From a virus (Duplodnaviria; Caudoviricetes), in the IMG/VR virus record IMGVR_UViG_3300027759_000001: a stretch of 64,000 nucleotides of DNA; one strand, given 5' to 3'. The notes beneath the pieces are model-generated. The model was not told where the DNA came from and ran no database searches. It was given only the letters and a program-made list of their open reading frames with translations. This document shows, one piece after another, positions 3,054-63,933 of this stretch. How positions within the stretch are numbered: the stretch's first letter is position 1; every line of letters starts with the position of its first letter. Both the position numbers and the translations under genes were made by a program.

Positions 3054-4379
3054 ATGGGAACTCAACCGATAATAGTAAAACCTGTAAATGAATGTGCAAT
3101 AATAACGTTATTTCCAATGACGGCTATATGTAATAGTATTAATCCAAGTACACCACAATCTTACGATGGATCAGTTAGTGTTTTGGTTAGTGGTGGTACT
3201 CCACCATATAATATTACTTGGGAAGAAGGTGGATCTGGACCAACAAAGTCTAATATTGGTGTTGGTAATTATCACGCAACCATAGTTGATTTTTATGGTG
3301 ATTTTACTGCAAATACAATATGTAGTTTAACTGCGGAAACAACCACAACCACAACTTCCACTTCAACAACTACTTTACCTGTTTATAGTGGTTTATGTAT
3401 GTATTTTACAAATACACATGGACCTAACTCGGAGACACATCAATTTTTATTTAATGGGTATTTAAATGGACAACCTACTTGGAAATCTGATGATAATTTA
3501 TATGATATATATTGGAGTACAGGAACAACAAATCAATGGTTAGTTGATGGATGGAGTAATGGTATTATTTATAATTCAAATACATCCACACCTCCATTAA
3601 CAGGATGGCAATTCTTAGGTGGAAGTTATTCTGCGTCATATGTAATTACTGTATTGGAAGGGGTTTGTGTGAGTAATCCTATGATTAATATGTCAATAAG
3701 TAAACAAGCACCAACTTGTGTTAATAATGGTAGTATTATTATAACTGCAAATGGTGGAACACCGGCATACCAATATTCAATTAATGGAGGAACTACGTAT
3801 CAATCAAGTCCGGTATTTAGTAATTTAGGTAGTGGTATTTATAGTGTTATGGCTAAAGATTCAAATAATATAACCACAACACAAAGTGTTACATTAACAT
3901 CAGCATCTGTTATTAACACTTATCAAATTCAATTACTTTTAACTGGTCCTAATTCTTTTAATATTCTAGTAACACCTACATTACCTAGTGGTACGTTTAT
4001 TACTTTTAATTTAACACATAATAGTACATTTAAATTAGCTCCTTCACCAACTGTGGCAACATATAATAATTTAGTTACGGTTATTGTTAATGGGACTCCA
4101 ATAACAACACCATCACCTATCTTAACTACAAGTACAACGTTTAATCCTTGTGATTCAGGATCAATTTACACAAAGATTAATGTAACTAATTGGAATACAA
4201 TAACATTTAATTCGTCAACTACAATAAGTGGTACTTTTACAAATACTATAAACCCAATAACACCTTTAGTTAATTGTTATAATGTTAGTGGTCAAAGTAA
4301 AATATTAATTAATAATGCTAAGTTGAATAAATGTGAATGTTGTAATCTTATAGTTAAAAATCCATCATATAATAAATAA
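3054..4379 (+). CDS. Thr-rich structural or adhesin-like protein with SprB-like repeats
   Basis: VSGGTPPYNITW and ANGGTPAYQYSINGG SprB-type motifs; poly-Thr linker; TATTTAT upstream. Confidence 0.65.
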   Translation: MGTQPIIVKPVNECAIITLFPMTAICNSINPSTPQSYDGSVSVLVSGGTPPYNITWEEGGSGPTKSNIGVGNYHATIVDFYGDFTANTICSLTAETTTTTTSTSTTTLPVYSGLCMYFTNTHGPNSETHQFLFNGYLNGQPTWKSDDNLYDIYWSTGTTNQWLVDGWSNGIIYNSNTSTPPLTGWQFLGGSYSASYVITVLEGVCVSNPMINMSISKQAPTCVNNGSIIITANGGTPAYQYSINGGTTYQSSPVFSNLGSGIYSVMAKDSNNITTTQSVTLTSASVINTYQIQLLLTGPNSFNILVTPTLPSGTFITFNLTHNSTFKLAPSPTVATYNNLVTVIVNGTPITTPSPILTTSTTFNPCDSGSIYTKINVTNWNTITFNSSTTISGTFTNTINPITPLVNCYNVSGQSKILINNAKLNKCECCNLIVKNPSYNK

Positions 4380-29076: not shown

Positions 29077-29985
29077 ATGAATAATGAAAACTATTACGGG
29101 GTTTTAGGTGTTGATGAAAAGGCAACACAAGAAGACATCAAGAAGGCATATAGAAACCTAGCAAAAGAAAATCATCCTGACAAAGGTGGGGATGAAGAAA
29201 AGTTTAAGAAGATCACTGAGGCGTATGATACGATTGGAGACGCAAATAAACGAAGTCAATACGATAATCAACGGAGTAACCCATTTGGTGGTAATTTTGC
29301 TGATATGTTTCATTCATTCAATCAACAACGACAAAGACAAGATACTCACACTAGTGTGATTACGGTGAACATAGGGGTGTTGGATTCATATTTAGGTAGG
29401 AATAAACAAATTACATATAAGAGAAAGACTAGTTGTAATGTTTGTAGTGGATCAGGAGGGGAGAAGAAGGTATGTACTACCTGTAATGGTATTGGTAGTG
29501 TTATGAAACAAATGGGTACGGGTATGTTCGTACAAGTTGTTAATATGATGTGTGATACTTGTTCAGGTACTGGTAAAATTACTATAAATGCTTGTTATTC
29601 GTGTAATGGATCGGAGACTAAAGATGAAATGAAAACATTGGATGTTAAAATACCTCATGGGTTAGAGGATGGTCAGTTCATAAGAATGTCAAATGTTGGT
29701 GATTTTAGAAATGGTAGATTTGGGGATTTGGTTATAAGGGTTAATTTAATGGAAGAAAATGGTTTCTTTAAGAACGGACCACATTTAATATATAACTCTT
29801 ATTTAAACTATGAAGATCTTATAAAGGAGGATATAAACATACCTCATCCTGATGGTGAGTTAAATATTAAATTACCTAAGTTATTTGATTCCTCAAAACC
29901 TTTGAGAGTTAAAGGTAAAGGATTTAAGGTAGATCAAATTGGGGATCTATTAATTAATCGGATTGTTAGGTTTGAAAGACCTTAA
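29077..29985 (+). CDS. dnaJ: DnaJ chaperone
   Basis: J-domain HPD, four CxxCxGxG-type repeats, DnaJ C-terminal domain. Confidence 0.92.
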
Positions 29986-39658: not shown

Positions 39659-39841
39659 ATGGGTTTTAACAAAAGATTTTTAAAGAAAGAGAACATCCTT
39701 AATCACCTTACAGATATTATGAATTATTTAGATGCCGACGCAGTGTTGTGTACGGATGAATTTTCACGCAATGTCTACAGGATGTTTAATGAGGGAAAAA
39801 ATGAGGAAGAAATAATAAAATACATAAATAAAAATAAATGA
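39659..39841 (+). CDS. Hypothetical protein
   Basis: Coupled ORF. Confidence 0.55.
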   Translation: MGFNKRFLKKENILNHLTDIMNYLDADAVLCTDEFSRNVYRMFNEGKNEEEIIKYINKNK

Positions 39842-40956
39842 AAGTTAAGTTAGAATATGTGTGGATTGACGGATATACACCGGAGCCAAACCTTAGAAGT
39901 AAGATTAAAATTGTGGACTATGAGCAAATTAAAAATTGTTTAGTTCTAAATAATTTCCCTGAATGGAACTTTGATGGGTCATCAACATTACAAGCGGAAG
40001 GTAATAGTTCTGATTGTATTTTAATACCTGTTAGACATTATTTTTGTGATAATACAAACACAATTTACGTGTTGTGTGAAGTAATGAATTCTGATGGTAC
40101 ACCACACGAAACTAATACAAGATCAAAACTAATTGGAGATCAAGAAGATTTGTGGTTTGGGTTTGAACAAGAATATTTTATCTACGATAGAAATAACAAA
40201 TGTATTTTAGGACACAATGAAAACAACTTGGAACCACAAGGTAAATATTATTGTGGTGTTGGTGAATATGTTGCAGGAAGAGATTTTGTTGAGGAACATA
40301 TGGATATGTGTTTAAAATACGGAATTGATATTACAGGGATCAACGCTGAGGTTGCATTAGGTCAATGGGAATACCAAGTATTTTCAAAAGGTAAATTAAA
40401 GGCAGGTGATGATTTGTGGATGACCAGATACTTTTTATATAAAATCTCTGAAAAATATAATTATGGGATTGATCTACATCCAAAACCAATTCAAAAAGGG
40501 GAATGGAACGGGTCAGGACTTCATACAAATTTCTCCACAGATAAAATGAGAAATGATGGTAACGAAAAATATTTTATATCATTGTTTAATGCGTTTGAGG
40601 TAAGACATGAAGCCCATATTAAATCTTACGGGTCAGATAACAATCTTCGTTTAACTGGTAAATTTGAAACACAATCAATTGATAAATTTAGTTGGGGGGT
40701 TTCAGATCGTGGGGCATCAATTAGAGTTCCAAGAGATACTGCAAAAAATTGGAAAGGTTATGTTGAGGATAGAAGACCTGGATCAAATGCTGACCCATAC
40801 AAAATTATTAAAGAAATTGACATATCTTTAAATACTACCGATCAAATCTACGATGTTAAAATAATGATGAGTAAGGATTTTGATATGGAAGGTCTTAATG
40901 AAAAATACGGAACAATTTCAAATGATGAATTATTAAAAGAATATAGAGAAGAATAA
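39838..40956 (+). CDS. glnA: Glutamine synthetase, type II-like (auxiliary metabolic gene)
   Basis: LEYVWIDG, WNFDGSST, GFEQEY, NAEVALGQWEYQ, WNGSGLHTN, RLTGKFET, EDRRPGSN. Confidence 0.92.
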   Translation: MKVKLEYVWIDGYTPEPNLRSKIKIVDYEQIKNCLVLNNFPEWNFDGSSTLQAEGNSSDCILIPVRHYFCDNTNTIYVLCEVMNSDGTPHETNTRSKLIGDQEDLWFGFEQEYFIYDRNNKCILGHNENNLEPQGKYYCGVGEYVAGRDFVEEHMDMCLKYGIDITGINAEVALGQWEYQVFSKGKLKAGDDLWMTRYFLYKISEKYNYGIDLHPKPIQKGEWNGSGLHTNFSTDKMRNDGNEKYFISLFNAFEVRHEAHIKSYGSDNNLRLTGKFETQSIDKFSWGVSDRGASIRVPRDTAKNWKGYVEDRRPGSNADPYKIIKEIDISLNTTDQIYDVKIMMSKDFDMEGLNEKYGTISNDELLKEYREE

Positions 40957-60014: not shown

Positions 60015-60623
60015 ATGATTGATAACATAGAAATTATAAAAACTTTATTGAATTTTTCTGAACAAGGAGATTTCTATATGTTGTATGTATTCAAACGTAA
60101 GAAAGATCAACCTGAAGGTGAGAGAGACAATCACCAATCTGTAAGGACTATTAAAACTTATTGTATTGAATCTATTGACCATTTGGAACGTAGATATGAT
60201 GAGATCAAACAACTATGTGAGATGTTTAAGGCGAGGGCGTATATTCACGTACAAAAACAAAATCATAAGGATGTTTCGTTAAATATGTTATCGTCACTTG
60301 CTGAACGTATCAGGGATGGTGTATCCAACCAGAAAGGGTTGTTTGATTCTGTTGTTGGGCAAATTAAAACTCAAGAGAAGATATGGATTGTTGACATTGA
60401 CACTAAGGATATTCAAGAATTAAGAAATGTTCAAGTGACTATTAATGGATGTAAACCTGAAGGACCTAAAACTAAATACGTTATTCCAACTAAAAATGGA
60501 TTCCATTTAATAACCGATAAGTTTGATGTTTTAGAATTTAAGAAACAATATCCTGAGATTGATATTCAAAAGAAGAACCCAACATTATTATATTTACCAA
60601 ACAGTTTAGAAGATGGATTATAA
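60015..60623 (+). CDS. Hypothetical protein with AEP/primase-polymerase-like motifs
   Basis: WIVDID and PTKNGFHLI resemble AEP motifs I and II; TATATTTG promoter at 59980. Confidence 0.5.
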   Translation: MIDNIEIIKTLLNFSEQGDFYMLYVFKRKKDQPEGERDNHQSVRTIKTYCIESIDHLERRYDEIKQLCEMFKARAYIHVQKQNHKDVSLNMLSSLAERIRDGVSNQKGLFDSVVGQIKTQEKIWIVDIDTKDIQELRNVQVTINGCKPEGPKTKYVIPTKNGFHLITDKFDVLEFKKQYPEIDIQKKNPTLLYLPNSLEDGL

Positions 60624-61683
60624 GGAATTAAAACGAAAAGAATTTTTATTTGAGATTATTAATGATACCATTGATGGTATGGATATATATAATCATAATG
60701 AATCTCTTTGGTTAATTAAAACTGAAGAATCAAAATGGGCAATTGAATTTACCAAAGATAAAACATTGTGGTATAACTACAATTTATTTAAAAATTTATT
60801 TAAGGCAATTTCTTTAGATATTTCGGAAAATCAAAAATATGTAACTGAATGGTTTGAGTCAAGATTTTTGAATATGTCAAAGGTTAAAGATTGTTGTGAT
60901 CCATTTTTTGATCAAGATAAATATGTTGAAGAAACAATTCAAAGTGGGGTGAAGATTAGCGTATTTGATGATTTTGAAGAGATCCAATCTGTTAAAGACA
61001 CCATTCAAAATGGGGTTAAACAAACCGATTTTTCCATCCGATTGAATAATACTAGTATTGAAGATACCATTCAAAATGGTGTGAGACACACCGGATATGC
61101 GGGCGTTCGTATTCCATCAAAAGTTGAAGATGCTATTCAAAATGGGGTGAAACACACCCATGCGCAACGGTTCCATGAGTTCGTTGGAGTTGAAGATACC
61201 ATTCAAAATGGGGTGAAACACACCAAAGCCGATCTTGGTATTCAATCAATTATGCTTGAAGACACAATTCAAAATGGGGTGAAAGAAACCAAATTAAAAA
61301 GTGGTAAACAAACTGGTAAAGTTGAGGACACAATTCAAAATGGTGTTAAACATACCGAAGATGGTGATTGGTTAGATGGTGATGAAAGAATAGGAGATAT
61401 TATTCAAGAAGGTGTAAAGGAGACTATTCCCACACTACGACGTACTCTTCTTGGGGTTGATGATATTGTTCAAAATGGTGTTAAAGAAACCCATGAAGAT
61501 ACGTATCACCATAAAGGTAGAATCGGTGGTGTGATTAAAAAATTTATAACGATGATTAATAAAATGTTTTATCGGTTTAACAAATGGTTTGAAATAAACT
61601 TAGGTTGGTTCTTTGTTAATGGTAGGAAACAAGAAGTTTGGCATAAATACTTAAAAAAAAAATATAAAAATGGAGATAGATAA
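60613..61683 (+). CDS. Protein with nine 22-aa repeats (12 conserved plus 10 hypervariable residues)
   Basis: VEDTIQNGVKHT repeated with unrelated intervening decapeptides. Confidence 0.8.
   Translation: MDYKELKRKEFLFEIINDTIDGMDIYNHNESLWLIKTEESKWAIEFTKDKTLWYNYNLFKNLFKAISLDISENQKYVTEWFESRFLNMSKVKDCCDPFFDQDKYVEETIQSGVKISVFDDFEEIQSVKDTIQNGVKQTDFSIRLNNTSIEDTIQNGVRHTGYAGVRIPSKVEDAIQNGVKHTHAQRFHEFVGVEDTIQNGVKHTKADLGIQSIMLEDTIQNGVKETKLKSGKQTGKVEDTIQNGVKHTEDGDWLDGDERIGDIIQEGVKETIPTLRRTLLGVDDIVQNGVKETHEDTYHHKGRIGGVIKKFITMINKMFYRFNKWFEINLGWFFVNGRKQEVWHKYLKKKYKNGDR
60925..61521. repeat. CRISPR-like array of nine 36-nt repeats and 30-nt unique spacers, in frame inside a CDS
   Basis: Repeats start at 60925, 60991, 61057, 61123, 61189, 61255, 61321, 61390 and 61456; consensus GTTGAAGATACCATTCAAAATGGGGTGAAACACACC; spacers are 30 nt (one is 33 nt). 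Confidence 0.9.
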
Positions 61684-61930
61684 ATTTGAACAGGCAAAAA
61701 AAGTTAAAGAAGATATTGATAGATTGGAAAGACAGAAGTATAAATTAGAATCTGTACTTAAATCCTGTAGTTTAGGTGTTACAATTGGGTTTACTCATTC
61801 AGGAGCATTTAATAGAAAAGATGAGGTAAGTGTTTATAATGGAATCCTTATCAAAGAAATGGTAACTAAAGAACTTGAAAGATTGGAAGAAGAAATTAAG
61901 TTAGTCAAAAAAGAATTTGAATTAATATAA
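61670..61930 (+). CDS. Hypothetical protein
   Basis: ORF in operon. Confidence 0.6.
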   Translation: MEIDKFEQAKKVKEDIDRLERQKYKLESVLKSCSLGVTIGFTHSGAFNRKDEVSVYNGILIKEMVTKELERLEEEIKLVKKEFELI

Positions 61931-62664: not shown

Positions 62665-62813
62665 TGATGACGGACGAAGAAAAGGATAATAGAATAAAAG
62701 AACTTGAGGAATTTCTTGAAGATGTTATTGAACATCCTTATATGTGTGGGTCCTCAATATGGGAAGAAGGTCGTAAATTACTAAACAAAGAAGAAGGTGA
62801 ACAAATTAGATAA
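62664..62813 (+). CDS. Small hypothetical protein
   Basis: Probable start MMTDEEK at 62664 within the 62631..62813 ORF. Confidence 0.45.
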   Translation: MMTDEEKDNRIKELEEFLEDVIEHPYMCGSSIWEEGRKLLNKEEGEQIR

Positions 62814-63933
62814 ACAATACCAAGATTTACTCCAAACTATTTTAGATTACGGAGTTGAAAAACAGGATAGAACAGGTACAGGAACCAAAAGTATTTTTGG
62901 TTATACTATTCGTCATAATATGCAAGATGGGTTTCCAGTTCTTACAACTAAGAAAATGGCTTGGAAAACTATGGTGACCGAGTTGTTATGGTTCTTGAGT
63001 GGTGATACAAACATCAAGTTCCTTGTTGATAACAATTGTCATATTTGGGATGGTGATGCTTATAAGAACTATTGTAAAATTGTAGGGTCTATTGAAGAAC
63101 CTGATTATAGTGTTCATGTTGATGACCCTAACCAAAATTGTACTAGGTTAATGACTATGGAAGAGTTCATCGACAAAATCAAGACAGATGATGAGTTTGC
63201 TAAGAAGTGGGGTGACCTCGGACCTGTGTATGGCAAGCAATGGAGAGATTGGGGAAGTAAAAAAAGATATGGTGACTATGAACCTCCAATGTATGGTGGT
63301 ATAGACCAAATCCAAAATCTAATCAATGACCTTAAGAACAATCCAGACTCAAGACGATTAATGGTTAATGCTTGGAATGTCGGAGAATTAGACCAAATGG
63401 TTCTTCCACCTTGTCATTATGGATTTCAAGTTTATACAAGAGAGTTGAGTGCTAGTGAAAGAATCACGTATAAAAACACTAAACAAATTAATTTATTGGA
63501 TTCAAATGAACTGTTTGATTTTATAAAAAGTAATGTTAGTATAGATTTAGATAATGAGGTTCATAAAGAATGTGACAAATTTAATATTCCAACCAGAGCA
63601 ATCTCTTTAATGTGGAATCAACGTTCAGTAGATACATTCTTAGGTTTACCATTTAATATCGCATCTTATGGGTTATTACTCACAATTTTGGCAAAAGAAG
63701 TTGACATGATTCCTGACCAATTGATTGGAAATTTAGGTGATACTCACTTATACTTAAATCATATTGAACAAGCGAAAGAACAGATCGGTAGAGAACCATT
63801 TCAATTACCAACACTAAATCAGTTCCCAACCTATGAAGGTTCAAGACCAAGTATTGAATCTTATGTGGTAGGTGATTTTACCCTTAAAGATTATCAATCA
63901 CACGAAACAATTAAAGCACTTTTATCAAATTAA
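62797..63933 (+). CDS. thyA: Thymidylate synthase with insertions
   Basis: DRTGTGT, ELLWF, LGPVYGKQWR, PDSRR, LPPCH, QRSVDTFLGLPFNIASY, GDTHLYLNH. Confidence 0.95.
   Translation: MNKLDKQYQDLLQTILDYGVEKQDRTGTGTKSIFGYTIRHNMQDGFPVLTTKKMAWKTMVTELLWFLSGDTNIKFLVDNNCHIWDGDAYKNYCKIVGSIEEPDYSVHVDDPNQNCTRLMTMEEFIDKIKTDDEFAKKWGDLGPVYGKQWRDWGSKKRYGDYEPPMYGGIDQIQNLINDLKNNPDSRRLMVNAWNVGELDQMVLPPCHYGFQVYTRELSASERITYKNTKQINLLDSNELFDFIKSNVSIDLDNEVHKECDKFNIPTRAISLMWNQRSVDTFLGLPFNIASYGLLLTILAKEVDMIPDQLIGNLGDTHLYLNHIEQAKEQIGREPFQLPTLNQFPTYEGSRPSIESYVVGDFTLKDYQSHETIKALLSN

Follow-up and report, generated by a model that had tools for sequence, protein, structure and literature searches.

The window, the whole stretch of 64,000 nucleotides that was analysed, derives from an uncultured phage with freshwater Bacteroidota as hosts; phage genes carrying a T9SS sorting domain and an SprB repeat are the basis for this host phylum. 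Exploring its region 60613-61683, we found a single open reading frame, P0001, in which a conserved N-terminal domain is followed by repeats (scaffolds) that alternate with variable segments (cassettes) (Table 1). The start and stop of this gene overlap the adjoining genes, its start codon lying across the stop of the upstream gene, and the gene order is kept in loci L001-L005. The upstream gene, which gives a weak lead to AEP-like primase-polymerases, precedes the array gene in 48 of 85 loci and is missing in L009.

Table 1. Features of the array gene and its upstream neighbour.
Feature	Position	Strand	Evidence or comparison
Upstream gene, 202 aa, phrog_14949	60015-60623	+	stop overlaps the start of the array gene
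Array protein P0001 ORF, 356 aa: N-terminal domain, nine-unit array and fused tail	60613-61683	+	>2,320 homologues
Conserved N-terminal domain (aa 1-87) and linker	60613-60924	+	AF2, profile search
Nine 36-nt scaffolds (VEDTIQNGVKxT) alternating with eight cassettes	60925-61491	+	antisense resembles type VI-B repeat
Middle cassettes GYAGVRIPSK, HAQRFHEFVG, KADLGIQSIM, KLKSGKQTGK with scaffolds	61093-61320	+	swapped in L001
C-proximal cassettes EDGDWLDGDER, IPTLRRTLLG, HEDTYHHKGR, conserved	61357-61521	+	in 99, 83 and 73 of 175 proteins
Degenerate tenth scaffold and junction of ~127-bp deletion	61522-61552	+	comparison of related loci
43-aa ORF (MINKMFYRFNKWFEINLGWFF...), formerly separate, fused in frame to the array protein	61553-61683	+	separate in L001, L002, L003

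The 36-nt copies begin at 60925, 60991, 61057, 61123, 61189, 61255, 61321, 61390 and 61456, giving a period of 66 nt (seven times) or 69 nt (once) and intervening segments of 30 nt (seven) or 33 nt (one); a trailing 30-nt segment (61492-61521) leads into the degenerate tenth copy (IGGVIK...). The nine repeats, eight spacers, trailing segment and degenerate tenth copy of the first-pass annotation were all reproduced. The array runs in frame without a stop codon, all of it within the ORF 60613-61683, and recomputing the G+C content of the three segments described as GC-rich gave 14/30, 16/30 and 15/30. Pairwise DNA identity among the nine copies is 56-94% (mean 77%); the edge copies are the most degenerate, as had been noted, with 62-64% identity to the best copy. 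The differences between copies concentrate at the third codon position, with 175 there, 75 at the first and 54 at the second. A hairpin proposed within the repeat (CCATT-CAA-AATGG) is complete in five of the nine copies when G-U pairs are counted, but not in the others. Pfam scans of 26 ORFs of the 64-kb window (20 of the largest, the array protein and its neighbours) detected no Cas or reverse-transcriptase domain, in agreement with the earlier statement that neither a cas nor an RT gene is present.

Towards its 3' end the P0001 gene carries a deletion of ~127 bp that takes out the usual last module (QPLPAQDGN...). The deletion junction was also found in an independent Logan contig (run X1; 61365-61706, 0 mismatches), and a related contig from an RNA library has 143 nt at the junction site. 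The in-frame fusion of the 43-aa ORF to the array protein occurs in one of 175 family proteins, P0001 alone.

P0001 is a real gene and its array is the body of a phage protein. More than 2,300 metagenomic homologues, forming 411 clusters at 50% identity and found only in uncultured freshwater phages, carry, behind the conserved N-terminal domain, 3-29 units that each combine VEDTIQNGVKxT with a cassette of ~10 aa, and the ORF stays open in >2,320 homologues despite this range of unit numbers. RNA-library contigs, which are unstranded, cover the gene (X16, 0 mismatches; cover judged from contigs only). The cassettes are shown to be selected as peptides: G+C at their codon positions 1, 2 and 3 falls from 0.47 to 0.38 and 0.28, a background-like coding pattern, and pN/pS within cassette clusters is 0-0.57. 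Pfam, NCBIfam and PHROGs contain no significant match to the family, deposited phages searched by tblastn with P0001 and with its N-domain returned nothing, and a feature search of the ESM Atlas gave no usable match. Pfam flags for 'Dodecin' and 'HU-CCDC81' on homologues were rejected as 16-28-residue motif matches to EDAIQNGVK.

AF2 predicts that the N-domain folds as one alpha element, four beta strands and two further alpha elements (pLDDT about 90). This domain has 16 invariant residues and is acidic (median pI 4.9), and its profile matches the 411 cluster representatives, N-terminal in every case. It resembles small uncharacterised phage proteins only, with no paralogue in the window, no PDB sequence match and no significant Foldseek match in the PDB. 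Two ideas about the protein were discarded. A DNA mimic does not suit family proteins that are merely mildly acidic (median pI 5.3), nor does a multi-core peptide precursor suit conserved neighbours lacking a protease or modifying enzyme and cassettes lacking enrichment in Cys, Ser or Thr. A scan for sigma-70 promoters found fewer sites than in shuffled sequences and is uninformative, because Bacteroidota promoters differ from the sigma-70 model.

For the repeat region, a stacked beta-solenoid with one coil per 22-aa unit is predicted. AF2 modelling of ten regular units gave pLDDT 78.8 and pTM 0.68, two of the five models reaching a pLDDT of 75 or more and two falling below 50; in the whole-protein model pLDDT is 55-65 across the repeats. 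The top 50 VIA matches were all beta-solenoid-type folds, almost all parallel beta-helices, with Z scores of 15.5 for SmsB/SufD, 14.2 for CsgA and about 13 for tailspikes (beta-helix range 12-15.5). In the predicted coil, the 12-aa scaffold V-E-D-T-I-Q-N-G-V-K-x-T would form two strands and the ~10-aa cassette an exposed loop.

The 1,575 cassettes of the 175 proteins group into 478 clusters, and 1,034 of them are exactly 10 codons long. The decapeptides had been thought to share no pattern; instead, seven of the eight inter-scaffold cassettes and the trailing HEDTYHHKGR recur in homologues. Cassette maps of the family show blocks in common, indels and order inversions, and multiple array variants occur together in one sample. 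Comparing the window with L001 and L009, we found flanks that are 92-99% identical and middle cassettes that differ, while cassettes in common are 100% identical in DNA. In L001, a near-identical phage, the four-cassette block at 61093-61320 is replaced by two different cassettes; GYAGVRIPSK and HAQRFHEFVG are present in L009 in another context (30/30 identical), and the DNA of EDGDWLDGDER, IPTLRRTLLG and HEDTYHHKGR is identical in both L001 and L009. Scaffold positions 10-12 are linked to the following cassette and positions 1-4 to the preceding one, the centre being unlinked. Crossovers within the invariant I-Q-N-G-V-K core move modules composed of the last scaffold residues, a cassette and the first scaffold residues. 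Together, the data show that core crossovers within and between related phages give gains, losses and reorderings of modules faster than the flanks diverge. Diversification now proceeds by recombination, at least largely within the conserved repeat core, and not by CRISPR adaptation. Of the earlier proposal of a new scaffold-plus-loop family diversified by an unknown mechanism, the family itself stands, being large, Pfam-less and predicted to be a beta-solenoid, but the mechanism is not unknown, core recombination accounting for it at least largely. Two other origins of the cassettes were rejected: decayed scaffold copies, as similarity equals the shuffled null, and recently captured DNA, as third-codon-position G+C and coding periodicity are native.

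The first-pass annotation had noted a likeness of the antisense repeat to Cas13b repeats, which was borne out. The antisense scaffold consensus agrees at 23 of 36 positions with the type VI-B repeat of F. columnare and at 22 of 36 with that of F. branchiophilum (PMC5395568 Table 4; PMC8092290), against 11-14 of 36 for three other Flavobacterium repeats used as non-VI-B controls; 100,000 shuffles gave a maximum of 22 and a mean of 9.2 +/- 2.6. A genuine metagenomic CRISPR array, L103, has ~20 near-identical repeats and 29-30-nt spacers rich in stops. Its repeat matches the antisense consensus at 29/36 and copy 61189-61224 at 30/36 (overall 29-31/36), where the metagenome search pattern had pre-fixed 22 of the 36 L103 positions and 9 of the 14 left free also match. 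The likeness spans only some 25-27 nt of the 36-nt unit and is absent from the final 10-11 nt of the scaffold; in copy 61189, the first 27 nt agree with the L103 reverse complement at 25 positions. L103 is assigned to type VI-B through its resemblance to the Flavobacterium VI-B repeats, because its contig has no cas gene. On the reverse strand the L103 repeat is an open frame, VVDTFQNGV, and such repeats read VVDT(F/L)QNGV.

Codon choice in the scaffold follows the same repeat. Nine third-codon positions are biased, strongly at 3, 6, 12, 15, 18 and 21 and moderately at 24, 27 and 36, and at all nine the base is that of the L103 repeat. Rare codons are kept, with ACC at 86% and 67% (background 15%), GGG at 67% (14%) and GTG at 60% (14%), and the pattern persists in subfamilies in which the synonymous sites of the N-domain are randomised. 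The retained CRISPR-repeat bases suggest continuing selection on RNA or DNA, or concerted evolution. Given matches of 22-23/36 to published and 29-31/36 to metagenomic repeats against those of the controls, we concluded that descent of the phage repeat from a type VI-B array, or mimicry of one, is well supported; convergent mimicry and descent predict identical data. No non-coding array of this repeat type turned up on a phage contig when viral contigs were searched with the repeat pattern, no family member holds a full-length repeat variant, and a stricter metagenome pattern (AATGG form) had no match. Across 401 Bacteroidota genomes, a 21-nt repeat half with <=2 mismatches gave only scattered single matches, about as frequent as for the control, without any array, and a two-scaffold DNA pattern gave one unrelated chance match, in Mucilaginibacter, among 185,579 species genomes. 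In Rfam, no family reached its gathering score in the window, nor did any CRISPR-DR family come up at E<=10 over the array.

It could be argued that P0001 is an ordinary solenoid tandem-repeat protein, and that its CRISPR likeness and 36+30 geometry are coincidental. A solenoid requires a constant coil length, and a coil of 22 residues would by itself set the 66-nt period; moreover, the cassettes are conserved peptides of native codon usage, no cas gene, spacer match or Rfam CRISPR family match was found, and part of the scaffold (GTT GAA ... ATT CAA AAT) is expected from common codons. This reading is already strained, however, by matches of 29-31/36 and 22-23/36 in the same register and length where shuffles give 9.2 +/- 2.6, by rare ACC, GGG and GTG codons placed exactly at the C, G and G of the repeat, and by hosts that belong to a VI-B-bearing phylum, and we consider it improbable.

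The array is not a working CRISPR array. The handle of a VI-B crRNA is closed by a GUUG/CAAC stem, and the L103 repeat folds with a closing stem of 7 bp (-7.7 kcal/mol); the antisense scaffolds lack it and fold no better than shuffles. Antisense crRNA-like decoys, as suggested earlier, are unlikely in that form because a crRNA handle made from the antisense repeat could not be closed by such a stem. In a BLASTN search of the array, a check proposed for the spacers, 50,697 phage records and 72,556 plasmids gave only chance-level matches of 25-33 nt, and the L103 spacers had no match to the window or to 84 phage loci. Nor did the polarity expected of spacer turnover emerge, as the arrays vary at their N-terminal end whereas the CRISPR leader side would be C-terminal. 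A working phage-borne array, or a repeat decoy, with an antisense transcript that host Cas13b binds and processes would agree with the geometry and the repeat likeness, and arrays and solitary repeats are known in phages (PMC10651486). But the 7-bp closing stem of the genuine repeat is impossible in the antisense scaffolds, the repeats are non-identical, the 'spacers' are protein-coding and evolve under purifying selection, and the resulting crRNAs would hit the phage's own mRNA, so that we give this reading very little credence.

Sequences that serve as DNA sites may also lie inside genes; the lambda origin sits within gene O. The repeats could in this way be candidate protein-binding sites, such as replication-origin iterons or a centromere, with two overlapping dyad symmetries preserved through codon choice and, on the weak AEP-like lead of the upstream gene, a possible primase-polymerase adjoining them. 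Such a role would leave the CRISPR-repeat identity unexplained and accords poorly with a copy number of 3 to 29, the loss of the upstream gene in L009, an acidic N-domain (median pI 4.9) and the strong constraint on scaffold and cassettes at the protein level; it seems highly improbable.

The protein-coding transcript might also act on the host Cas13b system. Under such dual use, the sense mRNA would present 9-29 candidate 'anti-repeats', complementary to host crRNA repeats over their 3'-terminal 25-27 nt, which could sequester pre-crRNA or crRNA, or anti-tag each cassette, blocking Cas13b activation. The CRISPR-repeat base is kept at synonymous sites against the A+T pressure of the genome in all subfamilies, copy 61189 shows the 25-of-27-nt agreement with the L103 reverse complement, and two 5-bp palindromes occur in 47% and 66% of 426 scaffolds compared with 15-16% in a codon-resampled null; RNA repeat mimics are, besides, an established phage strategy (PMC10651486). 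However, identity between copies is no more than 56-94%, the array folds with ordinary energy on both strands (z -1.7 and -1.3), the scaffold is, on the 4-fold-site average, only slightly more conserved than the N-domain (0.43 vs 0.51), and concerted evolution through core recombination could also slow synonymous decay. We regard dual use as a minority possibility and, judging from sequence, hold slightly less likely still its specific form, a coding RNA anti-CRISPR in which up to 29 mRNA anti-repeats would pair with host Cas13b crRNAs or act as anti-tags. In a bolder extension, phage array and host arrays may still exchange units.

The best explanation, to which we assign a probability of about 0.6, is that the array gene is an exapted type VI-B array, now a coding repeat protein diversified by core recombination and possibly keeping a role at the RNA level. 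Most likely, an ancestral Bacteroidota phage would have taken up a host VI-B array behind the N-domain gene, and read-through translation of the captured array would then have been exapted into a repeat protein. Read antisense, a VI-B unit of a 36-nt repeat and a 30-nt spacer would make 66 nt, or 22 codons; since this unit is frame-neutral and the reverse strand open, it would offer a ready-made modular protein recombining at the conserved repeat. As a multi-specific binder or a decoy, the protein may serve host takeover or counter-defence, as the array gene sits in an early or accessory gene block. The earlier suggestion of a captured and exapted array thus holds with respect to the VI-B repeat likeness, but not with respect to patternless cassettes, antisense decoys or spacer matches to phages and plasmids.

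In the literature searched, no CRISPR array turned protein body is described, and if descent holds, the family would represent a new route of gene birth. A 2023 survey of repeat mimics, run with ORFs masked, lists no type VI example (PMC10651486); the present family escapes searches of this design. It raises the question of an RNA-level counter to Cas13b by Bacteroidota phages; if the RNA anti-CRISPR were true, type VI-B immunity would be disarmed through a host array that the phage had copied and exapted.

Type VI-B arrays (F. columnare locus C2, PMC8092290, PMC5395568; L103) resemble the phage array in the 36-nt repeat with a modal spacer of 30 nt, in repeat family and in hosts of the same phylum, Bacteroidota. 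The near-identical repeats, the crRNA handle, the non-coding setting with leader and cas genes and the mobile-element spacers added at the leader end that mark such arrays were not found for the phage array, Cas domains having been sought in 26 ORFs of the 64-kb window. In contrast, the phage unit lies within a translated ORF, its copies are 56-94% alike, and its cassettes are conserved coding modules of native codon usage, without protospacer matches, that turn over by recombination with reversed polarity. Racrs and solitary repeat units (PMC10651486) are likewise phage-borne mimics of a host CRISPR repeat; Racrs are small non-coding RNAs in crRNA orientation and usually of a single unit (PMC10651486), whereas the phage array has 3-29 coding units and its mRNA carries the complement of the repeat.

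Beta-solenoid proteins (the SufD/SmsB beta-helix, CsgA, tailspikes, adhesins) show no sequence relationship to the array protein, whose fold is predicted only; the likeness lies in the predicted coil per ~22-residue repeat and in stacked identical residues (N and T, with E/K ladders possible). Unlike in these proteins, the loops of the phage array are a shuffled repertoire of conserved peptides, and unlike tail beta-helices, the array gene belongs to an early or accessory block and not to the tail module. Tape-measure repeats of Bacillus phages (T[IV]WNG[IL]K) have a weak likeness to TIQNGVK (tblastn E 1e-4, 21-26% identity) but a period of 11, not 22, and are helical, encoded by a tail gene and without variable cassettes. 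Shufflons, pilE/pilS and DGR targets similarly combine a constant frame with exchangeable segments at a locus that varies faster than the genome. The phage repeats are direct and not inverted as in shufflons, with no sfx sites and no recombinase adjoining the array gene; the window has no silent donor locus of the pilE/pilS kind; and, as against a DGR, the scanned ORFs hold no RT domain, there is no template repeat, and the cassettes differ wholesale and not at adenines. In contrast to all these cassette systems, the phage array exchanges its segments via direct repeats inside the gene itself.

The array geometry described in the first-pass annotation, 36-nt repeats alternating with 30-nt segments, was exactly reproduced in the window. 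The 356-aa array protein (P0001) consists of a conserved N-terminal domain (N-domain, aa 1-87) followed by units of a 36-nt scaffold, encoding V-E-D-T-I-Q-N-G-V-K-x-T, and a cassette of about ten residues. Homologues of 207-603 aa numbered more than 2,320 in a word-indexed search, every one metagenomic, and an exhaustive search with an N-domain profile returned 411 cluster representatives, the domain being N-terminal in all and nearly all full-length representatives running on into the same repeats. Across 175 distinct proteins we counted 3-29 scaffolds per protein, with a dominant period of 22 residues. Given that repeat copies in the window differ mostly at codon position 3, that cassette G+C is ordered over codon positions 1, 2 and 3 as in the surrounding genes, and that pN/pS inside cassette clusters is 0-0.57, translation is supported, and we concluded that the array is a protein. 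Cassette G+C at codon position 3 was background-like (0.28); the raised G+C of cassettes reflects the amino acids that they encode (His, Arg, Gln, Pro, Ser) rather than a foreign DNA source. Two RNA libraries gave contigs, strandless and possibly including DNA carry-over, that covered the array gene, one with 0 mismatches and the other, from a relative ~95% identical, spanning the upstream gene-array and array-downstream gene junctions.

The window is a piece of a phage genome of ~30% G+C with nearly all genes on the + strand, among them thymidylate synthase, a cREC receiver domain, RNA ligase, DnaJ and many small ORFs; the runs containing it are lake and freshwater metagenomes. The host probably belongs to the Bacteroidota, because a relative's protein has a T9SS sorting tail, the window has a SprB-repeat ORF and the closest thyA DNA is that of Flavobacterium phages. 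Thymidylate synthase ranges from 277 to 460 aa among near relatives (L002, L003, L001, L059), suggesting a variable insertion in thyA. Pfam and PDB sequence searches with the gene upstream of the array gave no match. At 20 of 85 loci a GIY-YIG-like ORF immediately precedes the array gene, and double-strand breaks there could stimulate array recombination. In the window copy a deletion of ~127 bp removed the usual last module and thereby fused the array protein to the 43-aa ORF that always lies 3' of the array gene with overlapping start and stop; this fusion, seen again in an independent assembly, was found only in the window copy among the 175 proteins. What the array protein does in the cell we infer from its setting among early or accessory genes.

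Coordinates of features in the window and in related loci
Feature	Location	Remarks
SprB repeat and T9SS Por_Secre_tail domain	window 3054-4379; L001:1-866	host-like Bacteroidota surface/secretion signals in phage ORFs
DnaJ and glutamine-synthetase-like protein	window 29077-29985 and 39838-40956	DnaJ full-length (J, CXXCXGXG, C-terminal domains)
Upstream gene	window 60015-60623	202 aa, phrog_14949; language-model lead to AEP-like primase-polymerases, score 0.94
Array ORF (P0001)	window 60613-61683	356 aa; start overlaps upstream gene's stop
43-aa small ORF	window 61553-61683; L001:6944-7075	basic, aromatic-rich, conserved (MINKMFYRFNKWFEINLGWFFVNGRKQ...)
Thymidylate synthase	window 62797-63933	378 aa; Pfam match in two pieces
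GIY-YIG-like homing-endonuclease ORF	L013:2200-2940 and 19 other loci	247 aa; repeated KKMS/NUMOD-like motifs
Degenerate repeat copies	L103:1289-1536	three, at array's 5' end (crRNA orientation)
Bacillus phage PBC1 tape measure	L086, 12802-13314	11-residue repeat T[IV]WNG[IL]K

Clustering of 1,575 cassettes from the 175 proteins at ≥60% identity yielded 478 clusters, 300 of them confined to a single protein, while EDGDWLDGDER (99/175 proteins), I(P/G)TLRRT... (83/175) and (H/Y)ED(T/V)YHHKGR (73/175) were near-universal. Like CRISPR spacer maps, cassette maps show blocks in a common order, insertions and deletions, and also genuine changes of order, 34 of 166 co-occurring pairs being seen both ways round. 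C-proximal positions were conserved and N-proximal ones variable; common clusters supplied 74% of cassettes at the last position vs 25% at the first. The related loci L001 and L009 have flanks 92-99% identical to the window and different middle cassettes, and such cassettes as they do share are 100% identical in DNA. One sample held several coexisting array variants. A linkage test located the crossovers: each end of the scaffold co-varied with the cassette next to it, residues 1-4 with the one before and residues 10-12 with the one after, and the centre (I-Q-N-G-V-K) was unlinked. Some phages carry two tandem array genes, each with its own N-domain and differing cassette sets (L054-L058, L062, L064-L067, L069, L084).

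The N-domain was modelled at pLDDT ~90 and resembled only small uncharacterised phage proteins; the repeats reached pLDDT 55-65 in the whole-protein model. Ten regular units of the homologue P0028 modelled alone gave pLDDT 78.8 and pTM 0.68 (three of five models were lower), each unit comprising a strand, N-G turn, strand and loop. All 50 best structural matches were beta-solenoid-type, nearly all parallel beta-helices (Z 15.5 for SmsB/SufD-type, 14.2 for curli CsgA, ~13 for tailspikes), and by this model the repeats likely form a solenoid. The likeness of the PBC1 tape-measure repeat to the scaffold core TIQNGVK is probably convergence.

The CRISPR idea was at first judged refuted, because there was no Rfam CRISPR family at the array, no protospacer by BLASTN against phages and plasmids and no cas gene in Pfam scans of 26 window ORFs, and because the array repeats diverge from one another. 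It was taken up again because of the scaffold's synonymous codon usage. Over 426 distinct scaffold DNAs, usage against background was 86% vs 15% for ACC at Thr4, 67% vs 15% for ACC at Thr12, 67% vs 14% for GGG at Gly8, 60% vs 14% for GTG at Val9, 98% vs 53% for GTT at Val1, 98% vs 70% for AAT at Asn7 and 100% vs 81% for CAA at Gln6, choice being free at Asp3, Lys10 and residue 11. The same pattern appeared in subfamilies with N-domains <55% identical to the window's, with invariant-residue codons randomised.

Read antisense, the scaffold consensus agreed in register with published type VI-B repeats of F. columnare (23/36) and F. branchiophilum (22/36), the sequences being those of PMC5395568 Table 4 and their locus identity and orientation those given in PMC8092290. 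Three non-VI-B Flavobacterium repeats gave 11-14/36, and 100,000 shuffles a mean of 9.2 and a maximum of 22. A metagenome scan revealed a genuine array on contig L103, with ~20 near-identical repeats GTTGTAGTACACCCCATTTTGAAAGGTATCTACAAC and spacers of 29-30 nt full of stops. Its reverse complement, VVDTFQNGVYYN, is identical to the scaffold consensus at 29/36, to window copy 61189 at 30/36 and to individual scaffolds at up to 31/36, the search pattern having left 14 repeat positions unfixed, 9 of which also match the scaffold; all three subfamily consensuses were 29-30/36 identical to it. The likeness to Cas13b repeats noted in the first reading was borne out. Nine third-codon positions showed single-base bias, strong at 3, 6, 12, 15, 18 and 21 and moderate at 24, 27 and 36, and the L103 base was present at 9/9; free positions (9, 30, 33) were variable or unlike it.

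We rejected a working CRISPR array: the 7-bp stem that closes the true repeat cannot form in antisense scaffolds, the scaffold's final 10-11 nt (encoding V-K-x-T) are unlike the repeat, and turnover has a polarity opposite to that expected from the leader side. The family contained no full-repeat variants, and a search of viral contigs turned up no similar non-coding array. The simplest account of the array gene is that a VI-B array was captured in reverse orientation behind an N-domain gene and then exapted into a repeat protein. A unit of 66 nt is frame-neutral, and the reverse strand of the repeat is open; recombination at the conserved core would have driven later diversification.

At positions 12, 24, 27 and 36, G and C persist despite A+T pressure, and two small palindromes are preserved by codon choice (complete in 47% and 66% of scaffolds vs ~15% expected); both observations point to selection on the nucleic acid. 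Alternatively, concerted evolution may keep the repeat bases at synonymous sites. Mean conservation at the scaffold's 4-fold sites exceeds that in the N-domain only a little (0.43 vs 0.51). A candidate reason for selection on the nucleic acid is that anti-repeats in the mRNA pair with host crRNA repeats. If so, the array mRNA would act as an RNA anti-CRISPR. A coding one would have escaped the published survey of repeat mimics, since that survey masked ORFs; it reported none for type VI (PMC10651486).
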